Notes: generated by a model from the letters alone, not told the origin. Shown: positions 31,194-63,922, numbered from the stretch's first letter. The stretch is 64,000 nucleotides of DNA from an uncultured Pelagibacteraceae bacterium (GCA_902570125.1 CACFXK010000002.1:18380-82379); one strand, 5' to 3'. A program made the numbers and translations.

Positions 31194-32005
31194 AAAAGAT
31201 TTATACTTGGGCCGCTCAACCTGCTAGCAGAACTCTTACAGTTGATGATCTTAAAAAAGCAAAAGGAAAAAAAAAATTTACTCAAGTCACAGCCAATACA
31301 ATAGATGAAGCTGATGCCGCAGAGAAGGCTGGGTTTGACATGATAATCTGCAATGCTTTTAATGTGAAACAGGTGAGAGAGGGATCAAAAAATCTATTTT
31401 TAACTGCTGCGCTAGTATTAAATAAGTTTGTCACTTCGGAAGATATCATGAGAGGAGCGTTTGAAGCCCTAGAAAATGGAGCTGATGCTGTAATGACACC
31501 TAGAAGTATGAAGATCATAGAAATGCTGGCTAATGAAGATGTTCCAGTTATGGGACATCTTGGTTTAGTTCCAAGAAAATCAACGTGGATTGGTGGTTTA
31601 AGAGCAGTAGGAAAAAATAGTGAAGAGGCACATGAACTTTTTTTAAAATTTAAAAGATTAGAAGATGCAGGAGCTTTTTCTGCTGAATGTGAGGTTATCC
31701 CAGAAAATGTAATGGGAGAAATCTCTAAAAGAACGAATATAGTTACAGTATCTTTAGGTTCAGGAAAGAAAGCTGATGTAATGTACCTGTTCATGGAAGA
31801 CATATGTGGAGATACTTTAAATCCTCCAAGACATTCAAAAGCTTATGGAAATTTATTAAAATTAAAAAATGAAATAAAAGTTGAGAGAGTTCGAGCTCTT
31901 AAGGCATTCAAAAAAGATTCAATGGCAGGAAAATTTCCAGGAAAAAAACAATCTTCAAATTTAAATAAAAAAGAATTCGAGTCTTTTCTTGATAAGCTTG
32001 ATTAA
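31190..32005 (+). CDS. PanB (ketopantoate hydroxymethyltransferase)-like protein, degenerate
   Basis: VPVMGHLGLVP, LEDAGAF, ECEVIP, SLGSG...D retained; GDS, DLPF and KIEGG motifs missing. Confidence 0.8.
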   Translation: MKKIYTWAAQPASRTLTVDDLKKAKGKKKFTQVTANTIDEADAAEKAGFDMIICNAFNVKQVREGSKNLFLTAALVLNKFVTSEDIMRGAFEALENGADAVMTPRSMKIIEMLANEDVPVMGHLGLVPRKSTWIGGLRAVGKNSEEAHELFLKFKRLEDAGAFSAECEVIPENVMGEISKRTNIVTVSLGSGKKADVMYLFMEDICGDTLNPPRHSKAYGNLLKLKNEIKVERVRALKAFKKDSMAGKFPGKKQSSNLNKKEFESFLDKLD

Positions 32006-32793
32006 TAAGTTTCAGATTCTTTTTTGCTTATTGAGCCTTTCATTTTTTCAACAATTGCTTTAGCACCTGCGCTCATAGCTCTTTGATCTGCACCAATAGT
32101 TACAAAGTTAAAACCTTTGTCGATCATTTTTTGTGCGTACTCTGGAGTTCCATTATGAATTCCTGCAAATATATTATTTTTTTTGGCATGCTCTAATATT
32201 CTTAATATTTCTGAATAAGCTTTTGTATCTTCTGCTCTGTCAAACCCAGGCTTTTCTCCTATTGCTAAACTTAAGTCAGCTGGACCAATATATATTCCAT
32301 CTACGCCATCTGTTGACATAATCTCATCTAATTTATCTAATGACTCTTTTGTTTCAATCATAGCTAATTTTAAAATTTCATCATTTGCATGGTCAGCATA
32401 ATCAGCTCCACCATAAATCAATCCTCTAACAGGACCAAAACTTCTATATCCTCTTGGAGGATACATACAAGCTTGAACAAATCTTTCCGCCTCTTCTTTG
32501 TTACTTACCATTGGACATATAATTCCATAACAACCAGCGTCTAAAATTTTCATTATTTGGCCTGGTTCATTCCAATTTACTCTAGCAAGAGGAGTTACAT
32601 CAGTTGATGAAATTGTTTGAAGCATTGGAAGTGCATTTGTGTAATCAACAAGTCCATGTTGCATATCTACAGTTAGAGAGTCCCAACCTTGATGCGCCAT
32701 AACTTCTGCTGATACAGTGCTTGGTATTTGTAACCAACCATTTACAACAGGCTTACCATCAGCCATCATTTGTTTGACTTTATTTTTTCTCAT
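32002..32793 (-). CDS. HpcH/HpaI-family class II pyruvate aldolase (GarL/RhmA-like)
   Basis: VDMQHG, PLARV, ILDAG, CPMV, YPPRGYRSFG, MIET, YIGPADL. Confidence 0.9.
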   Translation of the reverse strand: MRKNKVKQMMADGKPVVNGWLQIPSTVSAEVMAHQGWDSLTVDMQHGLVDYTNALPMLQTISSTDVTPLARVNWNEPGQIMKILDAGCYGIICPMVSNKEEAERFVQACMYPPRGYRSFGPVRGLIYGGADYADHANDEILKLAMIETKESLDKLDEIMSTDGVDGIYIGPADLSLAIGEKPGFDRAEDTKAYSEILRILEHAKKNNIFAGIHNGTPEYAQKMIDKGFNFVTIGADQRAMSAGAKAIVEKMKGSISKKESETY

Positions 32794-34235
32794 TAATAAT
32801 TGAGACCGAAGTGAGTATACTTAACGTTCAAATAATCTTTGATAGCCATTGAACCACCTTCTCTTCCATAACCTGTTTGTTTTATTCCTCCAAAAGGTAC
32901 TTCAGCAAATGCAATTGTTGGATGGTTCACTGCGCATGTTCCAGTTTCCATTTTTTCTGAGACTTTGTGTGCTTTTTCTAAAGAATTAGTGTAAATATAG
33001 CTTGCTAAACCAAGGTCATTATCATTTGCTCTTTCCACAACTTCATCTGTGTCTTTAAAAGTAAGCAATGGAACTAAAGGTCCGAATGGCTCTTCTTTAG
33101 CAATTGTAAAATTATCTTTAACATTGTCAAAAACAGTTGGTTCATAGAAATATCCTTTATTAAAACCAGCTGGTCTCTTTCCCCCACATAAAACTGTTGC
33201 TCCCTCACTTTTAGTTTTTTCTACTAATGCCTCTATTTCATTTAATCTTTTTTCTGTAGTTAAAGGTCCTAGAATTGTATCTTCATCCATTCCGTTACCA
33301 ACTTTCAGTTTAGTAACCTTTTCAACTAATTTTTTAGCAAATTCATCTTTTTTACTTTCATGAATATAAAATCTTGCTGGTGATATACAAACTTGACCAT
33401 TATTCCTAAATTTAGCAGTAATTGCCATGTCGGTTACCTTGTTAATATCTACGTCGTCAAAAACAATGAAAGGTGAATGGCCACTTAATTCCATTGTAAC
33501 TCTTTGGACTTTTTCAGCAGCTTGTTTTAAAATTAGTTTTCCAACTCTTGTTGAACCAGTTATAGAAACCTTTTTTACTATGTCAGATGATATTAATTGA
33601 GATGAGATTTTAGCTGGATCACCAGATAATAAATTTACTACTCCTGGAGGAACGCCCGCATCATTTATAATATTCATAAGTTCCATTACACTACCTGGAG
33701 TAATTACATCAGGCTTACAAATTACTGAGCATCCTGCAGCTAAAGCAGTGGAAATTTTTCTTGAGGATAAAACTATTGGAAAGTTCCATGGTATTAATCC
33801 AGCAACAACTCCAACAGGTTCATATTTTACATACATTCTTGTATGTTCAAATCTACTTTCAACTATCTGACCATAAATTCTTTTTGTTTCTTCAGAGTTC
33901 CACTCAAAAATATCTGCAGCTCCTCCAACTTCCCCTTTTGCTTCTGATAGTGGCTTTCCAACTTCTAATGTTAACCACTTAGCCAAATCATCAGTTCTCT
34001 CTCTCATAAGGTCGGCAATTTTTCTTATAATTTTTGATCTTTGCCAAGGTGGAGTATTTCTCCAAACTTCTAGACCTTTTTCTGCAGACTTAAGTGCTTT
34101 ATTTACATCTTTTTCACCTGCTTTAGATGCTTTACCTAAAACTTCTTCTGTTGCAGGATTTAAAACATCATAAGTTTCATTATTTTGTGATGCTTGCCAT
34201 TTGCCATCAATGAATTGTCCAAATTTGCTATACAT
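32793..34235 (-). CDS. NAD-dependent aldehyde dehydrogenase (SSADH / alpha-ketoglutarate semialdehyde dehydrogenase type)
   Basis: PWNFP, TGSTRVG, TMELSGH, KFRNNGQVCISP, EEPFGP, PFGGIKQTGYGREGG. Confidence 0.9.
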   Translation of the reverse strand: MYSKFGQFIDGKWQASQNNETYDVLNPATEEVLGKASKAGEKDVNKALKSAEKGLEVWRNTPPWQRSKIIRKIADLMRERTDDLAKWLTLEVGKPLSEAKGEVGGAADIFEWNSEETKRIYGQIVESRFEHTRMYVKYEPVGVVAGLIPWNFPIVLSSRKISTALAAGCSVICKPDVITPGSVMELMNIINDAGVPPGVVNLLSGDPAKISSQLISSDIVKKVSITGSTRVGKLILKQAAEKVQRVTMELSGHSPFIVFDDVDINKVTDMAITAKFRNNGQVCISPARFYIHESKKDEFAKKLVEKVTKLKVGNGMDEDTILGPLTTEKRLNEIEALVEKTKSEGATVLCGGKRPAGFNKGYFYEPTVFDNVKDNFTIAKEEPFGPLVPLLTFKDTDEVVERANDNDLGLASYIYTNSLEKAHKVSEKMETGTCAVNHPTIAFAEVPFGGIKQTGYGREGGSMAIKDYLNVKYTHFGLNY

Positions 34236-42613: not shown

Positions 42614-43789
42614 CTATTCTATAATTTTGAAATCAGACTTAAATTTATCAGTAATTGTTAAACCTAAACCTGGTTTGTTATCATCTAAATCTATATATCC
42701 ATTTTCTGGGGCAGGATCACCTTCAAATATATAATAAAATAATTCATTGCCAATTTCTACGTCATGGACAGGAAAAAATTCAGATATTGGACAATTAAAA
42801 TTTGACATTGTTAAATGATAATTATGCATTTGACCAGCATGAGGAATAACTGGTACTTGATAAGCTTCTGCCAAAGCATTTATTTTATTTGCAATTGTAA
42901 ATCCACCAACTCTATTATTATCATATTGAATATAACTGACTGCTTTAATGTCCAACAATTGTTTAAACCCAAATAAGTTGAATTCATGTTCTCCACCAGA
43001 AATCGGAATTGCATTCATATTATTTAATTCAGCATATCCATGAATATCGTCTGCTATAACTGGCTCCTCCAACCATCTAGGGTTAAATTTTACCAATTTT
43101 GGTATCATCCTTTTTGCATAATCCAGGTTCCAACCCATATAACATTCCATCATTAAGTCAGTATCATAACCAATAACTTCTCTAACTGCTTCAGCTAATT
43201 CAATATTTTTTTTCATGCCTTCAGGTCCATCTTTTGGCCCCCACCCAAATCTCATTTTAAACATTTTAAAACCTTGCTTAACATAGCTTTCAGCTTCTTT
43301 TTGTAAGTCCTTGATTGGTTGGCTGTAAAGTTTAGATGCGTAAACAGGAATTTTTTCTTTTGTTCTCCCACCTAATAATTTAAATACAGGTTTATTTGTA
43401 ATCTTTCCTATTATATCCCAGAGTGCAATATCAATTGCAGAAATAGCTACCATACCCAAACCTCTTCTTCCCCACGCATGCGTTCTTCTGTACATTTTTT
43501 CCCAGATATAAGAATAATCAAAAGGATCTTCACCTAGAACTAACGGCGTTAAATAAGTATCGATTGTTTTTTTAACCAACTGAGGTGCGAGTGCCGCGTT
43601 TCCAATTCCAATTATTCCATCATCAGTTTCAACTTCACATATTAACCATTCATGAAACCTAAAAGAGCCCATAGCATCTGATTTTTCAAACAAAAGGTCC
43701 GATGCATTTGTGCAAAAATTGTTTTGTGGAGGAACTGTTTTACCATTCCATTGATATACCTTGGTACGAATACTTTTTATTTTAGACAT
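42614..43789 (-). CDS. lyxD: L-lyxonate dehydratase-like enolase-superfamily (mandelate racemase subgroup) enzyme
   Basis: [64 protein letters not shown]; very close to P. aeruginosa LyxD as remembered (usually auto-annotated as L-rhamnonate dehydratase). Confidence 0.78.
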
Positions 43790-44785
43790 TTAATTGTTTT
43801 TATTTTCTGCCATTGTTAATGCAATTTTAAATGAATTCAAAGTAGGTTCTAAATTTGCCACATTTTTACCTGCAATATCAAACGCTGTACCGTGAGCAGG
43901 AGTTGTAATAGGTAAAGGTAAACCTCCTTGAACGGTTACTCCTCGATCAAATCCAAATGCTTTTAAACCTGATTGTAAAGCATCATGATACATACCAACA
44001 ATACAATCATGATTTCCATCTTTATAAGCAGTAATAAAAGAAGTATCACACGGTAAAGGTCCATCAGCATTAATACCTAGTTTTTTTGCCTCTTCTATTG
44101 CGGGTATAATTTCTTCTTTTTCCTCAGTTCCAAATTCAGCATGAGGATTCAGTGCTTGAACTGCTACTCTTGGACTTTTAATACCATTTAATTTCATAGC
44201 TTCATTTATAAGTTTAATTGGCTTAATAATGTTTTCCTTTTTTACATGTTCTGGAACTTCCTTTATTGGAATGTGTGATGATACCCTTGCTGTCCAAAAA
44301 TTATCAATAACATTAAATTCACAAAAAAAATTTTTAACCTCTAACTTTTCAGCCATTAAATGTAATTCATCAGAATATTTATTTCCTCCAAGTTTAAGGC
44401 TTGTTTTATTAAAAGGTCCAAAGTTTATTGCATGAATTTTATTTTCTTTAGCAAGATCTAAAGCTAAATTTAGCGAAGCTAAGACGCTTTCTCCCGCCTC
44501 TTTAGAGCACTCAGATAATTTATAATTATAATTTTTACCATTAGAGATATCTAGAAAAAATTTATCACCCTTCGCAAAATCAATATTATCGAAATCTTCA
44601 ACATAATTTAGATTATGTGATTTGCCTGAAATTTTATTTCCACTTTCAAATATATTTTTTTCACCTATGACAATTAAATTAGCCTTGTTAGTGATTTCCT
44701 CTGACAATAGTTTTGAGACCAATTCGGGGCCTATACCAGAAGGGTCCCCTAAAAGAACTCCTATGTTAATTTTATTTTGAGCCAT
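43790..44785 (-). CDS. PdxA-family protein, probable 2-carboxy-L-lyxonate decarboxylase (ClxD-like)
   Basis: GDPSGIGPE, SSHIP, LNPHA, MYHD, HGTAFDIAG; three metal His kept, several PdxA substrate residues replaced; abuts lyxD. Confidence 0.7.
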   Translation of the reverse strand: MAQNKINIGVLLGDPSGIGPELVSKLLSEEITNKANLIVIGEKNIFESGNKISGKSHNLNYVEDFDNIDFAKGDKFFLDISNGKNYNYKLSECSKEAGESVLASLNLALDLAKENKIHAINFGPFNKTSLKLGGNKYSDELHLMAEKLEVKNFFCEFNVIDNFWTARVSSHIPIKEVPEHVKKENIIKPIKLINEAMKLNGIKSPRVAVQALNPHAEFGTEEKEEIIPAIEEAKKLGINADGPLPCDTSFITAYKDGNHDCIVGMYHDALQSGLKAFGFDRGVTVQGGLPLPITTPAHGTAFDIAGKNVANLEPTLNSFKIALTMAENKNN

Positions 44786-44856
44786 TTTTTACTTTACGCT
44801 ATGTATCAGATTATGTTTATATATTTAAATATAAATTAACTAAAAAGAGGGAAATA

Positions 44857-45831
44857 ATGAAAAAAAGTTTTAAATTATTTTTAGCTGCCGCATTTTTGGT
44901 AACTGAATTTTTTGTTGTTGCACTTCCACTTATGATTACTTCTGCAAAAGCAGATGGTCACCCAATTCAAGCTATTACACACGCTGGTTTTGGTGGTGGT
45001 ACAGACGTAACTACTAGAATGATGTTGTTAAGAACTAGAAGGTATCTAAAACAAGATATGCAATTAGTTAACAAGAAAGGTGGTGGTGGAGCTGCATCTA
45101 TGGATTACATGATGACTTTACCAGCAGATGGTCAACATACTTTAACTTGGACTACAGGACATGCTGTTTCTATGGCATTAGGAAAAACAAAAGTTAAATT
45201 AAGTGATATGCAACCACTTGCTAGAGGAACTGATGATCCTCAATTATTTGTCGTAAATTGTAAAAATGATATTAAAGATGCTAAAAAATTTATTAGCGCT
45301 CAAAAATCAAAATCATTAAAATATGGTACTACTCACGTTGGTGGTATTGATGATGTAAGTGCTATCGCTTTTACAAAAAAAGGAAAATTAACAGACCCAA
45401 CAATTGTTCCTTATAAAGGTGTTGGTCCTATTAAAACTAATCTTATCAAAGGAGATATTGATGTAGGTGTTTTAAACTTGGGAGAAGCTGTAACAGAAAT
45501 TGAAGATGGTACATTGTGTGTTTCAGTTGTACTTGCTAGTAACAGAATGGAAAAATTAAGTAATGTTCCAACTGCTACCGAATTAGGAATTCCAGTTGTG
45601 CTTTCAACAGTTAGAGGTTTTGTAACAAGAAAAGGCGTTCCAGGCGATAGAAAAAAACAACTTGAAGATGCAATGATTAAAGCAATGGAACATAAATATT
45701 TCCAAAGTTTTTTAACTGATATCGGTCTTGATTCAACTAGTGTTGTTGGAGCTGATGAGTGGGGCAAGCAAATGGAAGTCATGCTTGCAGAGATGACTGC
45801 TCAACTTAAAGCTTTGGGTTACATTAATTAG
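44857..45831 (+). CDS. tctC: Tripartite tricarboxylate transporter substrate-binding protein (TctC/Bug)
   Basis: Signal peptide (AKA-DGH), GGGTD, VNKKGGGG, ADG.TL, VPYKG, VPTATELG, RG. Confidence 0.9.
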   Translation: MKKSFKLFLAAAFLVTEFFVVALPLMITSAKADGHPIQAITHAGFGGGTDVTTRMMLLRTRRYLKQDMQLVNKKGGGGAASMDYMMTLPADGQHTLTWTTGHAVSMALGKTKVKLSDMQPLARGTDDPQLFVVNCKNDIKDAKKFISAQKSKSLKYGTTHVGGIDDVSAIAFTKKGKLTDPTIVPYKGVGPIKTNLIKGDIDVGVLNLGEAVTEIEDGTLCVSVVLASNRMEKLSNVPTATELGIPVVLSTVRGFVTRKGVPGDRKKQLEDAMIKAMEHKYFQSFLTDIGLDSTSVVGADEWGKQMEVMLAEMTAQLKALGYIN

Positions 45832-45851
45832 TCATAAGAAAGTACATTTTT

Positions 45852-46358
45852 ATGAATAATGTACGAAATAAAAAAAGGGCAAACAAAAGTTTGCCCTTTT
45901 TTTTTAAAGATGAATTTAAAGTTTTTTTTGTAATAATATTTGTTTCGACAATATTATTAGTAACTACTTTTACATTTGATAAGGTTCCTCCAATTTTAAA
46001 TAGAGGCATACAACCTGCTACTTTCCCAAAAGGATTGTTAGTATTGATAATGTTTTTAACTGCAGTTATTTATTATCTTTCATTCAAAAATCCTTGGAAA
46101 AAAGAAAAAAAACTTCCAAAACCATTTTTTTTAACAATCTTAAGTTTTATTTTATTTATTATAATTTCTAAAACACTAGACTTTTTCTTAGCTATATCAG
46201 TACTCTCAATATTTGTTTCATACAATTGGGGTGAAAAGAGAATTTTTTATTTATTATTAGTTGGAATTTTGTTTCCATTAGTAGTTTTTATATTTTTTGA
46301 AATGATATTGGGACTTAGATTTCCTCCAGGAATAATTACAAACCTTTATTATTACTAG
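45852..46358 (+). CDS. tctB: TTT small membrane subunit TctB (start uncertain: ATG 45852 or TTG 45891)
   Basis: PATFP, about 4 TM segments, F...LGLRFPPG; lies between tctC and tctA. Confidence 0.85.
   Translation: MNNVRNKKRANKSLPFFFKDEFKVFFVIIFVSTILLVTTFTFDKVPPILNRGIQPATFPKGLLVLIMFLTAVIYYLSFKNPWKKEKKLPKPFFLTILSFILFIIISKTLDFFLAISVLSIFVSYNWGEKRIFYLLLVGILFPLVVFIFFEMILGLRFPPGIITNLYYY
45871..45905 (+). terminator. Terminator/attenuator hairpin after tctC, overlapping the tctB 5' end
   Basis: AAAAAAGGGCAAAC-aaaa-GTTTGCCCTTTTTTTTT. Confidence 0.82.
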
Positions 46359-46359
46359 T

Positions 46360-47832
46360 ATGGACAATCTTTTATTAATGATGGCACCTTTGTTTAGTTC
46401 TAAGTTGTTAATTGTTTTAATTTTTGGGACTTTATTTGGACTGATCTTAGGCGTTCTACCAGGATTAGGCCCTACAACTGGTGGTGCATTAATTTTGCCA
46501 TTTACCATGACTTTAGACCCTCTTTCAGCAATAGTTCTCTTAACATCAATTTACTGTGCTGGAACATACGGCGGTGCAATCACTGCAGTTTTAATAAATA
46601 CCCCTGGAACTCCAGCAGCAGCAGCCACTTGTCTAGATGGTTATCCCCTAGCTCAAAAGGGGGAAGCAGGAAGAGCCTTGGGTATGGCAACAGTTTCAAG
46701 CACAGTGGGTGGAATTTTTAGCGTAATAGTTTTGGTATTTTTTGCACCTGTTTTAGCTCAACTTGCCTATGAATTTGGTCAACCAGAATATTTTGCGTTA
46801 GCTATTTTTGGTTTAACAATGCTAGCATCAATTGGTGAAGGAAGTCCGATCAAAAATTTAATCGCTGGTGCATTTGGAATTTTAATTTCTACTATTGGAA
46901 AAGATTTTATGACTTCAATTGATAGATTTACTTATGGTATAAATGAGCTTTCTGTAGGAATAGGATTTATACCAGTTGTAGTAGGTTTATTTGCAATAAG
47001 CGAAATGTTAACTCAGTCTACACTTCTTGATCAAGTTTTTAAAAGAGTTGCACTAAAAGCGGTAAAACTTCCATCCTTAGATGATTATAAAAAAACCTGG
47101 AAAACTATTTTTAGATCTAGTGGTATTGGTTCGTTTATTGGAGTTTTACCAGCTGAGGGTGGGACTGTAGCATCCTTAATTGGTTATTCAGAAGCAAAAA
47201 GATTTTCTAAAGAGCCAGAAGAATTTGGAAAAGGGTCGATAGAAGGTATTGCCGGAGCTGAGGCAGCAAATAATGCTGCTACAGGTGGTGCAATGGTTCC
47301 AACGTTAGCATTAGGAATACCTGGAAGTGCTACAACAGCAGTCATATTAACTGGGCTTATAATTCATGGTGTAAGACCAGGTCCAGATCTATTTAGAGAG
47401 CAACCAGACTTTTTGTATGGAATTTTTGGGGCAATGTTAATTGCTAATGTTTTATTTTTTATATTTGGATTTTTTGGTGCAAAATTATTTGCAAGAATAA
47501 CTTTAGTTCCAAACAAAATTTTATGGCCAATGATATTTGCTGTATCTGTGTGTGGAACATACTCTCTAAGTCAATCTATCATTGATGTTTGGATTATGTT
47601 ATTTTTTGGAGTACTAGGATTTTTCATGAGAAGATTTGGTTTTTCGGTTGTACCTGTAATTATAGGATTAATTTTAGGAGAATTAGTAGAAGGAACTCTA
47701 AGACAATCTTTAGTTATATTTGATGGAAACTGGCTTATGTTTTTAACAAGACCTATAGCTTTAACTTTTTTTATTTTATCTTTAATTGCATTAGCTTTTC
47801 CTTTATTAAGGTCAAAAAAACAAAAAAAATAA
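46360..47832 (+). CDS. tctA: TTT large membrane subunit TctA
   Basis: LGVLPGLG, YGGAITAVLINTPGTP, DGYPLAQKG, EAANNA, PTLALGIPGS. Confidence 0.95.
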   Translation: MDNLLLMMAPLFSSKLLIVLIFGTLFGLILGVLPGLGPTTGGALILPFTMTLDPLSAIVLLTSIYCAGTYGGAITAVLINTPGTPAAAATCLDGYPLAQKGEAGRALGMATVSSTVGGIFSVIVLVFFAPVLAQLAYEFGQPEYFALAIFGLTMLASIGEGSPIKNLIAGAFGILISTIGKDFMTSIDRFTYGINELSVGIGFIPVVVGLFAISEMLTQSTLLDQVFKRVALKAVKLPSLDDYKKTWKTIFRSSGIGSFIGVLPAEGGTVASLIGYSEAKRFSKEPEEFGKGSIEGIAGAEAANNAATGGAMVPTLALGIPGSATTAVILTGLIIHGVRPGPDLFREQPDFLYGIFGAMLIANVLFFIFGFFGAKLFARITLVPNKILWPMIFAVSVCGTYSLSQSIIDVWIMLFFGVLGFFMRRFGFSVVPVIIGLILGELVEGTLRQSLVIFDGNWLMFLTRPIALTFFILSLIALAFPLLRSKKQKK

Positions 47833-47833
47833 T

Positions 47834-48583
47834 ATGATCAATTTTGACTTAAAAAATAGAGTTGCAGTTGTTACAGGTGGAGCGCAAGGTTTTGGTTTAG
47901 CTATTACAGAGAGATTTATTGCTTCAGGAGCGAGCGTAGTAATTTGGGATATTGATGAAGAAGCGATTAAATCAGCTATTAACAAAATTAATTCTGATAA
48001 GGTCTCATATCAAACAGTTGATGTTGGAAATTATGAAAGTATCTTAAAAAATTTAGCTGATGTTGAAAAAACTCACAAAAAAATCGATATTTTTATTAAT
48101 AATGCGGGAGTTGCAGGAAAAAATACTACAGTAGTTGATTATCCAATTGATGAATGGAAAAAGGTAATAGATTTAAATTTAAATGCAGTATTTTATTGTT
48201 GTAAAGCAGTTACCCCCTACATGATAAAGAATAATTATGGAAGAATTGTAAATATTGCATCAATCGCAGGAAAAGAAGGCAATCCTAACGCTAGTGCTTA
48301 CAGCACCTCTAAAGCAGGAGTAATAGGTTTAACAAAGTCATTGGGAAAAGAATTAGCATTAAAAAATATTGCAGTTAATTGTGTTACTCCAGCAGCAGCA
48401 AAAACAAGAATATTTGATCAAATGACCGAAGAACATATAAATTATATGTTATCTAAAATTCCTAGAAATAAATTTGCAAAAGTTAATGAATTAGCATCCC
48501 TTGTGACTTGGTTATCAAGTGAAGAAAATTCTTTTTCAACAGCTGCTGTTTTTGATTTGAGTGGTGGAAGAGCAACTTATTGA
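47834..48583 (+). CDS. NAD-dependent SDR, resembling 2-keto-3-deoxy-L-rhamnonate 4-dehydrogenase (LRA5 type)
   Basis: TGGAQGFG, NNAG, ASIAGKEGNPNASAYSTSK, C-terminus FDLSGGRATY. Confidence 0.7.
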   Translation: MINFDLKNRVAVVTGGAQGFGLAITERFIASGASVVIWDIDEEAIKSAINKINSDKVSYQTVDVGNYESILKNLADVEKTHKKIDIFINNAGVAGKNTTVVDYPIDEWKKVIDLNLNAVFYCCKAVTPYMIKNNYGRIVNIASIAGKEGNPNASAYSTSKAGVIGLTKSLGKELALKNIAVNCVTPAAAKTRIFDQMTEEHINYMLSKIPRNKFAKVNELASLVTWLSSEENSFSTAAVFDLSGGRATY

Positions 48584-48586
48584 TTT

Positions 48587-49489
48587 ATGCAAATAGGTGT
48601 TGATGTTGGAGCTACAAAAATAGAAAGTGTAGTTTTAGATGAAAAAGGGAACGAAAGTCATCGTGAAAGGACTGATTGTCCAAAAGACTATTTTCAAATT
48701 ATAAAAACAATTAAAGAAATTAACAAAATGTTAGAAAAAGAATTTAAAAAAGAACTACCCATTGGTGTTTGTCATCCTGGCATTCATTCACCTCAAACTG
48801 GATTAGTTAAGAATGCTCCAAACTGTTATTGGTTAGAAAAAAAACCATTTCAAAATGATCTAAGAAAAGAATTAGGCAAAGAGGTATTTTGTGAAAATGA
48901 TGCCAATTGCTTTGCTTTGTCTGAAGCTTTAGATGGAGCAGGAAAACATTATAAAATTGTTTATGGAATTATTATTGGCTCTGGTGTAGGCGGTGGTTTA
49001 GTAATAGATAAAAAAATTGTTAGTGGACCAAATGGGGTAGCAGGTGAATGGGGACATAATCAAATTAACCATTTAATTTCCAAAAAAGAAAATTTCGAGT
49101 CTACCAATCTAAGAGAGGGTGAGATTGAGAGTTTTATGTCAGGCTTAAGTTTAGCAAAAAAATTTAATAAAAAATTCAAAAAGAATATAAAGACGAATGA
49201 AATTTTTGATTTATATAGAAAGCATGATTTAGATGCTGAAAATTTAATAGATAATTTTAAAGTAAATTTAGCAATGTCCTTATCAAATATAATTAACATT
49301 CTTGATCCCGATTGTTTCGTTTTTGGCGGGGGTGTTTCAAATGAAATTGATTTTTTAAGTGAAATTGAAACTATCGTTAGAAAATTTGTAACAGGCAGAG
49401 AGTATGATGGTGTTTTTCTTAAACCAAAGTACGGAGATGCTAGTGGCGTAAGAGGTGCTGCAAGATTAGGGAGAAAATCAATCTATTAA
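48587..49489 (+). CDS. ROK family sugar kinase (no HTH)
   Basis: GVDVGATK, ENDANCFALSE, IIGSGVGGG, GEWGH, GGGVS, GDASGVRGAA. Confidence 0.88.
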   Translation: MQIGVDVGATKIESVVLDEKGNESHRERTDCPKDYFQIIKTIKEINKMLEKEFKKELPIGVCHPGIHSPQTGLVKNAPNCYWLEKKPFQNDLRKELGKEVFCENDANCFALSEALDGAGKHYKIVYGIIIGSGVGGGLVIDKKIVSGPNGVAGEWGHNQINHLISKKENFESTNLREGEIESFMSGLSLAKKFNKKFKKNIKTNEIFDLYRKHDLDAENLIDNFKVNLAMSLSNIINILDPDCFVFGGGVSNEIDFLSEIETIVRKFVTGREYDGVFLKPKYGDASGVRGAARLGRKSIY

Positions 49490-60932: not shown

Positions 60933-61949
60933 ATGTTAAGATTAATAACAAAAATAACTGCTGCTATTGCTGTGGTCTCTATTGCTTTATTTGGTTCTGC
61001 AAATGCAAAAACTTTAAAAATAGAAACTCACTTTACAGCTAGCTCACCTAATGGTGAAGTTGCAGCTCAATTCGCTAAAAACGTTGAAAAGTTTTCTGGC
61101 GGAAGCTTAAAAGTTCAAATGTTCTACTCATCATCAGTTACAGGAAAGTCTGCTGAGGTATTTAACTCTGCACAAACTGGAATTATTGACTGTGATATGA
61201 CAGGTGCTGGATACCAAACTGGTAAAAATGCAGCTTTCCAATTCGCAGGCGATGTAATGGGTGGATATGACAACCCGTATCAACAATATGAATTCTTGAA
61301 TTTCCCAGGAGCTCAAGAAGCTGTTGATGCACTTTACAATAAATATGGAATGACTTTAATTGGTTGGTGGATACCAGGACATGAGTCTTTAATTTCTAGC
61401 AGACCAATTCCAGATGTTGCTTCACTAAAAGACTTTAAATTTAGATCACCTCCAGGAATGGAAAGTATGATCTTTACAGCATTAGGAGCTAAACCAATCG
61501 TTATGGACTTCGGTGAAGTTCCAACTGCTTTACAAACTGGTCTAATTGATGGTGCTGACTATTCTTCATTAGCAACAAACTATGCTGGTGGACACTATGA
61601 GCAAAACAAATATGCTACATATCCAGGTTTCCACTCTATGCCAGCTGACCACCTAGCTTGTAACACAAAAGTTTGGAATAAGTTAAAGCCTCATGAACAA
61701 GGTGCGATGTTAGCTGCAATAGAAATCTGTGGTAGAACTATCACTAGTTTGGTTGAGAGAAAAAATGCCGAAGCTGTAAAAGCTTTAAATGAGATGGGTG
61801 TTACTCTTCATGACTGGTCTAGAGAAGACAGACTTAAATTCAGAAATGCTGCATTAGGAGCTTGGGAAGAATGGAAGAAAAAATCTCCTGAAGCTGCCGC
61901 TCTTATTGAGATACACAAAGCTTACATGAAAGCTAACGGTATCCTATAA
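60933..61949 (+). CDS. dctP: TRAP transporter substrate-binding protein DctP
   Basis: Signal peptide; KFRSPPG (carboxylate-binding Arg), GEVPTALQTGLIDGAD; GAGAGG SD. Confidence 0.92.
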   Translation: MLRLITKITAAIAVVSIALFGSANAKTLKIETHFTASSPNGEVAAQFAKNVEKFSGGSLKVQMFYSSSVTGKSAEVFNSAQTGIIDCDMTGAGYQTGKNAAFQFAGDVMGGYDNPYQQYEFLNFPGAQEAVDALYNKYGMTLIGWWIPGHESLISSRPIPDVASLKDFKFRSPPGMESMIFTALGAKPIVMDFGEVPTALQTGLIDGADYSSLATNYAGGHYEQNKYATYPGFHSMPADHLACNTKVWNKLKPHEQGAMLAAIEICGRTITSLVERKNAEAVKALNEMGVTLHDWSREDRLKFRNAALGAWEEWKKKSPEAAALIEIHKAYMKANGIL

Positions 61950-61971
61950 TAAAAAGCACTTAACAAAATAT

Positions 61972-61995
61972 AGAAGGGCCTTAAATGGCCCTTCT
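61972..61995 (+). terminator. Stem-loop after dctP
   Basis: AGAAGGGCC-ttaaat-GGCCCTTCT; weak U-tract. Confidence 0.75.
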
Positions 61996-62013
61996 TATAA
62001 ATATTTTTTAATA

Positions 62014-62598
62014 ATGAGTGATAAAGAGTTACAAGACAAACAATTACAAGAGCAAAATGAAAAAGTTGCAAGTAAAGATGATTTTCCAATAAATTGGATT
62101 GATAGAATTTCATTATTTTTAAGCCACACAATTAAATATTTAATCCCTGTAATAGTAATCGTAATGATGTATGAAATTTTTATGAGGTACGTGCTATTTA
62201 AACCTACATTATGGGCCAATGAATTATGTTTATGGTTGGCAGGTGTTTGTTATTTAGTTGGTGGAATATATGCTACGAGACTTAGAAGTCATATCAGAAT
62301 TGTCTTATTATATGACTATGTAAGCAGGCCAACTCAGCGTATTTTTGATCTAATTAGTACTCTTATTATTGTTACTTTTGCAGCTGCTGTAATTTATGGA
62401 GGCATGGAAGATGCATATAGATCATTTATAAATTGGGAAAGATTTGCAACTTATTGGGATCCACCAATTCCTGCAACCATGAAGCCACTCACGCTTATTT
62501 GTATATTTCTTATAGCTCTACAATCAATAAATAATTTAATTATTGATTGGAAAAATCCTAAAGAAAAACAGTACCAACCTGCTAAAGATTTAAAATAA
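62014..62598 (+). CDS. dctQ: TRAP transporter small permease DctQ
   Basis: 4 TM segments, MRYVLFKPTLWANE, HIRI. Confidence 0.9.
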   Translation: MSDKELQDKQLQEQNEKVASKDDFPINWIDRISLFLSHTIKYLIPVIVIVMMYEIFMRYVLFKPTLWANELCLWLAGVCYLVGGIYATRLRSHIRIVLLYDYVSRPTQRIFDLISTLIIVTFAAAVIYGGMEDAYRSFINWERFATYWDPPIPATMKPLTLICIFLIALQSINNLIIDWKNPKEKQYQPAKDLK

Positions 62599-62599
62599 A

Positions 62600-63922
62600 A
62601 TGGAATTTGAGATAGGGACACTCTCGATAATACTAATAGTAGGACTATTAGCATTGATATCAATAGGTGTGCCTATGGGTTTTGCTTCAGGTTTTATGGG
62701 AGCAGTGCTTGTATTTTTATACATAGGTGAACATGCTTTAGGAATTTTGCTTTCAAGGTATTATTCTCTTGTTGTAACTTACTCATTCTTATCGGTACCA
62801 TTATTTATATTCATGGCCTCCTTACTCGAACGCTCGAATATTGCAAGAGACTTGTATGATGCCTTAAATGCTTGGTTAAGAAAAACTAGAGGCGGAGTAG
62901 GTGTAGTAACAGCAATCATGGCAACAATAATGGCAGCGATGAGTGGTATAATCGGAGGAGAGATAGTTTTATTGGGGCTGATTGCACTACCCCAGATGTT
63001 GAGATTGAAATATGATCAAGATATGTCGATTGGTATTATTTGTGCATCGGGTTCTTTAGGCACAATGATCCCACCATCTATTGTTTTAATTATTTATGGA
63101 CTAACAACAGAAACTTCAATTACCATGTTGTTTCAAGAAGCAATCGTTCCTGGTTTAATGATATCCGGTTTAATAATTACATACATTCTTATTAGAACAA
63201 GAATACAACCTCATCTTGCACCGTTAAGTGATGAACCAGCTTTAACTTTAAAAGAAAAGATGTCGTATCTCCCTGGTCTTTTACCACCTATTGGTATTGT
63301 TATAATTGTTTTGGGTTCAATTTATTCTGGAATGACTGGTATAACTGAAGCAGCTGGTATGGGTGTAGTTGCAACACTAATTATTATCGCCGCTAGAAAA
63401 GAGCTGACATGGTTTCTATTTAAAGATGCGCTTGTTCGAACTTTTAAAGCTTCAGGAACCATATTAACTATTACTTTTGGTGCTACGGTTTTAGCTGGAG
63501 CTTATTCTTTAGCGGGTGGACCAACCTATGTAGCAGAAACTATTTTAGCTTATGATTTAAAACCAATGTACTTAATCTTTATGATGCAAATAATGTTTTT
63601 AATAATGGGTGCATTCATGGATTGGGTTGGAATAGTTCTATTAGCAATGCCAGTTTTTTTACCAATAGTACTAGCTCTGGGTTTTGATCCTATTTGGTTT
63701 GGAATACTATTCTGTGTAAATATGCAAGTTTCATTTTTAAGCCCACCATTTGGTCCTGCAGCATTCTATTTAAAATCAGTTGCTCCACCACACATTTCAC
63801 TAACTGATATTTTCAGAGGTTTTGCACCATTTATAGTAATTCAATTGATTGTTTTGGCTTGTGTTATGTTCTTTCCAGAAGCAATGACGCAAAACTTCCA
63901 CGATTTTGTTCCTAGAAAATAA
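62600..63922 (+). CDS. dctM: TRAP transporter large permease DctM
   Basis: VPLFIFM, GSLGTMIPPSI, FLSPPFG. Confidence 0.93.
   Translation: MEFEIGTLSIILIVGLLALISIGVPMGFASGFMGAVLVFLYIGEHALGILLSRYYSLVVTYSFLSVPLFIFMASLLERSNIARDLYDALNAWLRKTRGGVGVVTAIMATIMAAMSGIIGGEIVLLGLIALPQMLRLKYDQDMSIGIICASGSLGTMIPPSIVLIIYGLTTETSITMLFQEAIVPGLMISGLIITYILIRTRIQPHLAPLSDEPALTLKEKMSYLPGLLPPIGIVIIVLGSIYSGMTGITEAAGMGVVATLIIIAARKELTWFLFKDALVRTFKASGTILTITFGATVLAGAYSLAGGPTYVAETILAYDLKPMYLIFMMQIMFLIMGAFMDWVGIVLLAMPVFLPIVLALGFDPIWFGILFCVNMQVSFLSPPFGPAAFYLKSVAPPHISLTDIFRGFAPFIVIQLIVLACVMFFPEAMTQNFHDFVPRK

Follow-up and report, generated by a model that had tools for sequence, protein, structure and literature searches.

What does a SAR11 bacterium gain from a PdxA-family gene that abuts an enolase-superfamily dehydratase gene (gap of 0 bp), with a tctCBA-SDR operon divergent from both? 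The genes lie in a 64,000-nucleotide stretch of DNA (the window) from a Pelagibacteraceae genome of 1.27 Mb and ~30% GC that is 86% complete. The features are listed in Table 1; the six open reading frames of the sequence-only reading, and its gaps, including the one of 0 bp, proved exact. That reading took the genes for a module that scavenges a breakdown product of vitamin C (ascorbate). Linkage to LyxD, residue changes and an orthologous TTT transporter agree with it in silico, and from these we infer the substrate. The balance tips, if slightly, toward the module being a shortened form of the bacterial L-ascorbate/L-lyxonate pathway that is fed by a transporter.

Table 1. Features of the locus and of the upstream aldolase pair (window coordinates).
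Feature	Position	Strand	Basis
Predicted L-lyxonate dehydratase (LyxD), enolase superfamily, mandelate racemase subgroup	42614..43789	-	Pfam MR_MLE_N + MR_MLE_C
PdxA-family paralogue, probably 2-carboxy-L-lyxonate decarboxylase forming L-lyxonate	43790..44785	-	Pfam PdxA, 248 bits
Divergent intergenic region, 71 bp, between PdxA-family gene and tctC; presumed promoters	44786..44856	.	position only
TctC, periplasmic binding protein of TTT	44857..45831	+	Pfam TctC
TctB, small membrane subunit of TTT	45852..46358	+	Pfam TctB
TctA, large membrane subunit of TTT	46360..47832	+	Pfam TctA, 527 bits
SDR, probably L-2-keto-3-deoxypentonate (L-KDP) 4-dehydrogenase	47834..48583	+	Pfam adh_short; PDB matches
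ROK-family sugar kinase, uncertain module member	48587..49489	+	Pfam ROK; fructokinase-like, below cut-off
HpcH/HpaI-type aldolase	32002-32793	-	Pfam HpcH_HpaI
Aldehyde dehydrogenase	32793-34235	-	Pfam Aldedh

A promoter scan of the divergent intergenic region gave no signal above chance in such AT-rich DNA. The roseobacter module includes a GntR gene; its SAR11 counterpart has no regulator gene. The ROK kinase gene often adjoins the SDR gene in SAR11; its identity falls to 40-54% at some loci at which the module is still conserved.

By homology and conserved residues the dehydratase is an orthologue of LyxD, for which dehydration of L-lyxonate is predicted. Both the N- and the C-terminal enolase domains (MR_MLE_N/C) are found by Pfam search, and PDB entries 3SSZ, 3STP and 3SQS are matched over the full length (phmmer E-values 1e-198 to 1e-204). 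(We take 3STP to be the Labrenzia LyxD, a point on which its PDB title is silent.) Identity to orthologues at at least 593 loci is 66-77%, and K178-x-R180, D290 and H317 are invariant in an alignment of 10 orthologues. In 2014 Ghasempur and colleagues reportedly ascribed to LyxD, besides the enolase domains, a KxR motif where strand 2 ends and a His-Asp dyad.

The PdxA-family gene had been read as neither a B6 PdxA nor a threonate-4P PdxA2, and alignment with E. coli K-12 PdxA bears out the residues cited. The metal histidines H166 (SSHIP), H211 (NPHA) and H266 (YHD) and the equivalent of K274 are kept, and the phosphate-site changes are as described: GHTE135-138 to DELH, N283 to T and R292 to I. 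The DELH, T and I changes are common to the SAR11 copy and the LyxD-linked PdxA-family genes of complete ascorbate clusters. The gene reaches none of the NCBIfam equivalog cut-offs. Housekeeping PdxA (216 bits, cut-off 290) is rejected: H136/T137, N283 and R292 are replaced, and the pdxA position, in an lptD-surA-pdxA-rsmA-like row of the same genome, is held by a separate gene. PdxA2 (166 bits against 583) is rejected as well: no DUF1537 kinase gene is found anywhere in the 86%-complete source genome, and a DUF1537-linked representative falls outside the clade. In the tree, too, the gene groups with neither housekeeping nor DUF1537-linked PdxAs, so that the original denial of both roles stands on score, gene content and phylogeny.

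The SAR11 clade lies inside a 98%-supported clade that holds all LyxD-linked PdxA-family enzymes. Its stem is long, at 0.86 changes per site, and the free tree places it in a polytomy; a single LyxD-linked clade that includes SAR11 is not rejected by an AU test (p-AU 0.74). Identity of the SAR11 enzyme to other LyxD-linked enzymes is 38-45%. All SAR11 copies have a 4-residue deletion directly after the NPHA metal histidine and YHDAL in place of YHDQG, changes that could alter the substrate pocket. Not every member of the clade is tied to L-lyxonate: P0134, a related PdxA-family gene accompanied by a similar TTT (48% and 57% identity), is linked to Dak1/Dak2 and not to LyxD. This Dak-linked cluster represents at least one other pathway served by the clade and, together with the long SAR11 branch, would suit a module that acts on some other sugar acid, branched or dicarboxylic, that has nothing to do with ascorbate, with pathway likeness at the family level only. 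Such a substrate seems to us very improbable, given that LyxD shares 66-77% identity with its orthologues from complete ascorbate clusters and keeps its catalytic residues, that the PdxA-family gene is coupled to LyxD at 0 bp, that the transporters are orthologous, and that L-KDP is the start of both SAR11 lower routes. Within a pathway derived from that of ascorbate, the PdxA-family enzyme probably makes L-lyxonate by decarboxylating 2-carboxy-L-lyxonate, a reaction reportedly described by Stack and colleagues in 2020.

Gene neighborhoods argue in the same direction. A PdxA-family gene is near LyxD in all 48 non-SAR11 LyxD loci examined, and at every SAR11 locus with intact flanks. In six of the 48 a YncE-like propeller, cytochrome b561 or both are encoded as well, alongside an SGL lactonase, KdlD and α-ketoglutarate-semialdehyde dehydrogenase (KGSADH), which we take to be the gene set of the published ascorbate pathway. 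Eleven non-SAR11 loci have the order TctCBA-LyxD-KdlD-GntR-PdxA-family gene, with KGSADH next in 8 of these. The truncated, TTT-led form of the module, found in roseobacters and others, is not unique to SAR11; within the Pelagibacteraceae, ~40% of the high-quality genomes sampled have the module. Strains HIMB1517 and Uisw_127 are among its carriers. A literature search found no paper describing such a module in SAR11, in keeping with the novelty that had been supposed.

The upper steps of ascorbate breakdown, previously noted as missing from the window, are absent genome-wide, and from a complete SAR11 chromosome as well. Cytochrome b561, the YncE-like propeller and Amidohydro_2 are not found in the 86%-complete source genome, whose single SGL lactonase is distant (27% identity) and lies in a neighboring cluster. 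Two further SAR11 strains, one with a complete genome, likewise lack propeller and cytochrome b561 throughout their genomes, as do two non-SAR11 organisms with the truncated form.

What enters the pathway is presumably what the transporter brings in. The TctC, TctB and TctA genes stand in a row, each above its Pfam cut-off. TctC shares 50-55% identity with its counterparts in most roseobacter TTT-LyxD-PdxA modules (43-55% overall), against only 26% with the source genome's other TctC; for TctA the values are 57-63% with LyxD-linked modules outside SAR11 and 35-38% with the genome's two other TctA genes. TctB is syntenic at all SAR11 loci. At the level of sequence the SAR11 transporter is orthologous to that of the truncated roseobacter module. 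Because this TTT-led form lacks the upper ascorbate genes genome-wide, the imported substrate is most likely 2-carboxy-L-lyxonate. It is unlikely that the TTT instead imports L-lyxonate, or L-lyxonate and L-xylonate, with the PdxA-family enzyme in an accessory role (for example, epimerizing L-xylonate through transient oxidation): a TTT that delivered L-lyxonate would make the PdxA-family gene useless, yet that gene is kept at every LyxD locus, whatever the transporter. The roseobacter TTT-linked PdxA-family enzymes are, moreover, nearly the same in the tree as those of full ascorbate clusters, and the TTT binding proteins that have been studied mostly bind di- or tricarboxylates, as does the SAR11 citrate binder. 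Import of the monocarboxylates would nonetheless fit the lineage-specific changes beside a metal ligand of the SAR11 enzyme and the origin of both compounds as slow ascorbate decay products, arising from the 2-carboxy compounds; L-lyxonate also supports growth of P. aeruginosa (PMC6336799).

Below LyxD, the favored pathway appears to take a different course in SAR11. KdlD (DHDPS-type) and the matching α-ketoglutarate-semialdehyde dehydrogenase are present at most orthologous LyxD loci outside SAR11; they are absent from the source genome and from most SAR11 genomes, which have the SDR and an FAH hydrolase instead. We infer, as a new feature, that SAR11 mostly swaps the usual lower route for an L-KDP 4-dehydrogenase (the SDR) and the FAH hydrolase. 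The SDR matches PDB entries 6D9Y, 9JVE and 9KQ1 with E-values of 4e-82 to 7e-89 (4e-82 for 6D9Y); 6D9Y is a putative L-KDR 4-dehydrogenase, 51-54% identical to characterized L-KDP/L-KDR enzymes (PMC11199699). The substrate-side Lys of SKIP and Arg of GGRATY are kept, and the SDR gene is syntenic with TctA at nearly all SAR11 loci. The FAH hydrolase gene directly adjoins the SDR gene at three loci (L057, L087 and L092) and is nearby at two more (L044 and L079). The only FAH hydrolase gene of the source genome (G000:C2:83920-84762) is 17 kb from the SDR gene, in a separate cluster with an SDR and a dehydratase of its own; its best NCBIfam model is 2,4-didehydro-3-deoxy-L-rhamnonate hydrolase (408 bits). 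Conversion of L-KDP to pyruvate and glycolate by a dehydrogenase and a hydrolase is an established route (PMC6336799). One cultured SAR11 strain, HIMB1517, has AraD1-like (FAH-superfamily) and α-ketoglutarate-semialdehyde dehydrogenase-like genes beside the module and, also new, appears to keep an α-ketoglutarate-type route.

An aldolase and aldehyde dehydrogenase pair 9.8 kb upstream offers a possible alternative. With the same upstream steps, the HpcH/HpaI aldolase would cleave L-KDP to pyruvate and glycolaldehyde, the aldehyde dehydrogenase would yield glycolate, and the SDR would serve another substrate. That the SDR, and not the aldolase, stays attached to the transporter operon across SAR11 and falls in the L-KDR/L-KDP 4-dehydrogenase group makes this doubtful, as does the setting of the window's aldolase pair among inositol-type genes, even though aldolase routes are known for keto-deoxy-pentonates and an orthologue of the aldehyde dehydrogenase gene is directly beside LyxD at six SAR11 loci (L057, L058, L060, L087, L092 and L093). 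The NCBIfam matches of the aldolase are keto-deoxy-acid aldolases, all below cut-off.

The dehydrogenase/hydrolase route completes a pathway that can be laid out as follows. The dicarboxylate 2-carboxy-L-lyxonate (2-carboxy-L-threo-pentonate) would arise from dehydroascorbate via 2,3-diketogulonate without enzymes; non-enzymatic formation of 2-carboxy-pentonate from diketogulonate is on record (PMC11066805). TctCBA would take it up, and the PdxA-family enzyme, with bound catalytic NAD+, would form L-lyxonate by C3 oxidation, decarboxylation and re-reduction. LyxD would dehydrate L-lyxonate to L-KDP, the SDR encoded after tctA would oxidize L-KDP at C4, and the FAH-family hydrolase would split the resulting diketo acid into pyruvate and glycolate, compounds that relieve the known growth requirements of SAR11. 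Many SAR11, then, carry a module by which a vitamin C decay product is most likely imported and converted to pyruvate and glycolate; the enzymes that attack vitamin C itself are missing. More tentatively, and with a confidence that stops somewhat short of even, we propose that SAR11, roseobacters and other marine bacteria harvest the spontaneous product of phytoplankton vitamin C, 2-carboxy-L-threo-pentonate, by a dedicated high-affinity TTT, and that SAR11 turn this compound into pyruvate and glycolate precisely. If so, the labile dissolved organic carbon of the sea would include vitamin C decay products as a widely used component that has gone unrecognized.

With housekeeping PdxA and the PdxA2/DUF1537 pathways the SAR11 gene has the fold and the three metal histidines in common; it differs in its replaced phosphate-binding residues, its scores below cut-off, its clade and the absence of DUF1537. 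The closer relative is L-ascorbate catabolism in Ralstonia eutropha H16 and Pseudomonas aeruginosa, in which a PdxA-family decarboxylase reportedly acts ahead of LyxD (Stack et al. 2020, J Am Chem Soc 142:1657). The pair of PdxA-family gene and LyxD is the shared element, also present in marine clusters with cytochrome b561, SGL lactonase and the YncE-like (WD40-like) propeller. In contrast, SAR11 lacks cytochrome b561, the pathway lactonase, the propeller and the amidohydrolase genome-wide; its TTT would feed in at the decarboxylase step, and its PdxA-family enzyme is set off from other LyxD-linked ones by low identity and the loop deletion. The L-lyxonate pathway of P. aeruginosa PAO1, reportedly described by Ghasempur et al. 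2014 (Biochemistry 53:3357), is matched by the SAR11 LyxD orthologue with its KxR motif and His-Asp dyad, and by the AraD1-like and semialdehyde dehydrogenase-like genes of HIMB1517; unlike it, most SAR11 have no KdlD, and have the SDR and FAH hydrolase. Non-phosphorylative Route III of pentose, L-rhamnose and L-fucose metabolism (Watanabe et al. 2019, PMC6336799; PMC11199699) differs in that SAR11 L-KDP would derive from L-lyxonate made by decarboxylation and not from L-arabinose, and in the 17 kb that separate hydrolase and SDR genes in the source genome; the likeness lies in an SDR of the L-KDR/L-KDP 4-dehydrogenase group, an LRA6-like FAH hydrolase, and pyruvate and glycolate as the predicted products.

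Comparative genomics lends support to the sequence-only reading of this SAR11 gene module as one for scavenging breakdown products of ascorbate, a reading to which we give, overall, a little better than an even chance. ORF calls and Pfam bear out its gene positions, the direct abutment of the PdxA-family gene on the gene of an enolase-superfamily dehydratase (LyxD, L-lyxonate dehydratase), the divergent orientation of the genes for the tripartite tricarboxylate transporter (TTT; TctCBA) and the SDR, and all of the protein families named. A scan of the divergent region between the PdxA-family gene and tctC for promoters and terminators yielded nothing above chance. The window (~30% GC) belongs to a 1.27 Mb genome in 38 contigs that is named Pelagibacteraceae or Candidatus Pelagibacter in database sources, and the module's surroundings constitute a sugar and sugar-acid island (ribose-type ABC genes, a ribokinase, inositol-type genes and more dehydratases). 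The gene directly 3' of the SDR in SAR11 often encodes a ROK-family kinase, which in some loci has diverged (40-54% identity); none of the proposed steps calls for a kinase.

Positions of the module genes, the adjoining kinase gene and a second acid-sugar cluster
Feature	Position	Strand	Remarks
Enolase-superfamily dehydratase (LyxD)	42614-43789	-	ORF and Pfam
PdxA-family gene	43790-44785	-	0 bp to dehydratase gene; ORF and Pfam
tctC, tctB, tctA, SDR	44857-48583	+	divergent from PdxA-family gene; ORF and Pfam
ROK-family kinase	48587-49489	+	3' of SDR
Second acid-sugar cluster	G000:C2:79312-86844 (contig coordinates in source genome)		window 60933-63922 plus 4.5 kb past window end; L006:301-4844

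Along its whole length the dehydratase aligns with three solved chains, 3SSZ, 3STP and 3SQS (phmmer E 1e-198 to 1e-204); 3STP is presumably the Labrenzia L-lyxonate dehydratase. Orthologues at 66-77% identity occur in at least 593 loci of species-representative genomes. K178-x-R180, D290 and H317 are invariant in an alignment of 10 orthologues and presumably correspond to the KxR motif and His-Asp dyad reported for L-lyxonate dehydratase by Ghasempur et al. 2014. SAR11 has two classes of LyxD: in seven loci (L079, L082, L087, L090, L092, L093 and L096) it shares just 70-72% identity with the window protein and is as distant from it as the roseobacter enzyme is. In these loci the PdxA-family gene beside LyxD (83-86%) and TctA (92-95%) are still close, which suggests that LyxD alone has been replaced, or has undergone ancient allelic divergence.

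The PdxA-family gene of the module is one of two such genes in the source genome; its counterpart, the housekeeping copy, adjoins surA-, lptD- and rsmA-sized genes as it does in E. coli. The window gene scores under every NCBIfam cut-off (216 against 290 for pdxA; 166 against 583 for D-threonate-4-phosphate dehydrogenase). Alignment with E. coli PdxA confirms what had been compared by eye, namely that its product keeps the three metal histidines and K274 and has GHTE replaced by DELH, N283 by T and R292 by I; these replacements are also present in LyxD-linked PdxA-family genes of other bacteria. The sub-cut-off score, the replaced residues and the separate housekeeping copy lead to rejection of the window gene as a housekeeping PdxA. 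Identity with PdxA2 is rejected on its score for that family and on the absence of a DUF1537 kinase, noted before for the window and now extended to the whole source genome (86% complete). SAR11 copies have features of their own: all lack four residues immediately C-terminal to the NPHA metal histidine and, beside the third metal histidine, have YHDAL (YHDQG in almost all relatives).

Outside SAR11 the nearest PdxA-family representatives are only 38-48% identical and were found by exhaustive search, a word-index protein search having been swamped by SAR11 sequences of 94-100% identity, with no distant relatives among its matches. In a tree of 163 rows (without the R. eutropha and P. aeruginosa reference enzymes) SAR11 forms a clade with 100% support and a long stem, placed in a polytomy from which the free tree does not resolve a sister group. 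The other representatives in the polytomy are P0129 (context SGL-YncE-PdxA-enolase), P0128 (DctM-PdxA), P0126 (enolase/Aldedh/TctCBA-PdxA), P0127 (a fungal gene) and P0134, of differing context (PdxA-Dak1-Dak2-TctCBA). This polytomy is nested in a 98%-supported clade containing all LyxD-linked enzymes; housekeeping PdxAs and one DUF1537-linked representative fall outside. Monophyly of SAR11 together with all LyxD-linked enzymes, set against Dak-, DUF1537- and PdxA-type rows, was not rejected in an AU test on 63 rows (p 0.74), and the constrained tree scored better than the quick free tree. This outcome is consistent with orthology of the SAR11 and LyxD-linked enzymes, without proving it.

In locus L111:6001-12606, a PdxA-family gene that falls in the same large clade precedes Dak1, Dak2, TctCBA (TctC 48% and TctA 57% identical to the SAR11 counterparts) and genes for a xylose-isomerase-like TIM barrel and a SorC-type regulator. 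The pathway encoded there is a different one, as yet uncharacterised, in which this type of TTT is again combined with this type of PdxA-family enzyme. The non-SAR11 representative most identical (48%) to the SAR11 enzyme is fungal (L109:6001-7157), and its gene adjoins a fungal-type transcription factor and an MFS transporter.

LyxD loci were taken from 9 of 400 sampled Pseudomonadota genomes and, with 10 kb flanks, from named genomes (80 loci), their neighbour genes being labelled by BLAST and Pfam. A PdxA-family gene lies near LyxD in all 48 non-SAR11 loci, for which three layouts recur. Full clusters, exemplified by Sedimentitalea, Pacificibacter, Pseudoruegeria and a Methyloligellaceae MAG, in their fullest form run YncE-like propeller, PdxA-family gene, LyxD, DHDPS-type KdlD, aldehyde dehydrogenase, LacI, ABC transporter, eukaryote-type cytochrome b561 and SGL lactonase. 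(The propeller has no Pfam match; its language-model neighbours are YncE/WD40-like clusters.) The ascorbate pathway published by Stack et al. 2020 reportedly has this same gene set. An amidohydrolase is also said to be among its enzymes; no amidohydrolase-family lactonase was found in the contig parts read around the Sedimentitalea cluster (L095, L107 and L108). TTT-led clusters (11 loci in roseobacters, an Oceanospirillaceae MAG, Nitratireductor and others) comprise TctCBA, LyxD, KdlD, GntR and the PdxA-family gene, with aldehyde dehydrogenase next in 8 of the 11 and upper-pathway genes nearby in none; TRAP-led clusters are otherwise of the same kind. The SAR11 layout (47 loci) has a core of SDR-TctA-TctB-TctC divergent from the PdxA-family gene and LyxD, with varying flanks. 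TctC is 43-55% and TctA 57-63% identical between TTT-led clusters and SAR11; the TTT is orthologous across SAR11 and other marine bacteria.

The upper steps, noted before as lacking in the window, are absent from the source genome, genome-wide searches of which detected no propeller, cytochrome b561, Amidohydro_2 or close lactonase. Protein searches with the full cluster's propeller and cytochrome b561 likewise found neither in four whole genomes, those of Pelagibacter sp. Uisw_127 (a complete chromosome), HIMB1517, Pseudopelagicola nBUS_19 and Ruegeria Alg231-54, and recovered the positive control's own genes. PF01292 (prokaryotic cytochrome b561) was discarded as a search model, the marine cluster's cytochrome belonging to another family, and the PF03188 blank counts for little, this model being without a match in any control genome; the absence of the cytochrome rests on the protein searches. 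Because the upper genes are missing genome-wide and the control was positive, the truncated form is real and common to SAR11 and other marine bacteria. Import of L-lyxonate would leave the PdxA-family gene pointless, yet the gene is always kept; the simplest reading is therefore that the TTT delivers the substrate of the PdxA-family enzyme. The transported compound, proposed to be 2-carboxy-L-lyxonate, is inferred, as is the reaction that the divergent enzyme of SAR11 would catalyse. 2-Carboxy-L-pentonate and its lactones arise non-enzymatically from diketogulonate and decay slowly to L-lyxonate and L-xylonate (PMC11066805). Citrate uptake was rejected as the role of the window TTT on two grounds: its TctC is only 26% identical to the genome's other TctC, and the citrate binder of HTCC1062 is that strain's only TTT binding protein.

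For the lower route, a genome-wide search of the source genome found no orthologue of KdlD or of the full cluster's semialdehyde dehydrogenase. The SDR following tctA matches 9JVE (E 7e-89), 9KQ1 (E 6e-86) and 6D9Y (E 4e-82), the last a putative L-KDR 4-dehydrogenase that is 51-54% identical to characterised enzymes including C785_RS20555 (PMC11199699), which acts on L-2-keto-3-deoxypentonate (L-KDP) and L-KDR (PMC6336799). The Lys and Arg named in PMC11199699 are conserved in the window SDR. (A literature search on 9JVE and 9KQ1 turned up nothing relevant, and published work on L-threonate 3-dehydrogenase proved to have no bearing on the SDR.) The genome's FAH protein best fits the model of 2,4-didehydro-3-deoxy-L-rhamnonate hydrolase (408 bits; cut-off 500), and its orthologue directly adjoins the SDR in SAR11 loci L057, L087 and L092 and lies close by in L044 and L079. 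The SDR would thus convert L-KDP to 5-hydroxy-2,4-dioxopentanoate, and the FAH hydrolase would split this to pyruvate and glycolate, a route supported by the SDR's family match, the FAH model fit and the FAH-SDR adjacency. A GlcD-like oxidase in the source genome scores under its cut-off. It is possible that L-KDP is instead cleaved by an aldol route, through the HpcH aldolase that the same island holds together with an aldehyde dehydrogenase.

Besides this dehydrogenase/hydrolase route, SAR11 has a second lower route. In the cultured Candidatus Pelagibacter sp. HIMB1517 (L059:3366-5904) the module genes are all co-directional, the SDR is absent, and an AraD1-like FAH-superfamily gene and a semialdehyde-dehydrogenase-like gene stand beside TctCBA, the PdxA-family gene and LyxD; this route is probably alpha-ketoglutarate-forming. 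Both would begin at L-KDP and so fit with L-lyxonate as the LyxD substrate. The source genome's only FAH hydrolase is encoded in the second acid-sugar cluster, along with TRAP DctPQM, a 3-hydroxyisobutyrate-dehydrogenase-like gene, a second SDR, an SGL lactonase and a second enolase-superfamily dehydratase, which shares 36% identity with LyxD. The cluster resembles a dehydrogenase/hydrolase pathway of the fuconate or rhamnonate type, and its FAH hydrolase may be shared with the LyxD module.

SAR11 is the most abundant bacterial group of the surface ocean and has few known carbon sources. The SAR11-type PdxA-family gene is present in 67 of 300 sampled Pelagibacteraceae species genomes (50 of the 123 of high quality; 6 of 19 genera), and near-identical copies are very common in marine metagenomes. 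If the scavenging reading is true, ascorbate decay products would be a new substrate class for SAR11, the TTT would have a new transporter specificity, and these streamlined cells would possess a route to pyruvate and glycolate; cultured strains bearing the module (HIMB1517 and Uisw_127) make the reading directly testable. Papers on SAR11 transporters, one of which inferred substrates for several SAR11 TTT versions and another of which characterised the citrate-binding TTT protein of HTCC1062, mention neither the module nor ascorbate products, and no description of it was found in the literature on L-lyxonate, or on ascorbate with SAR11.

An ascorbate pathway has been proposed for SAR202. New here are the truncated, transporter-fed form that is common to SAR11 and other marine bacteria, the orthology of its TTT among them, and support from gene content for a SAR11 version running mostly on the dehydrogenase/hydrolase lower route; if the scavenging reading holds, ascorbate-type pathways are evidently reducible to a scavenging lower half. 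The transporter-fed versions differ in that the TTT-led clusters outside SAR11 have KdlD and GntR in the row, whereas in the SAR11 core it is the SDR that follows TctA.
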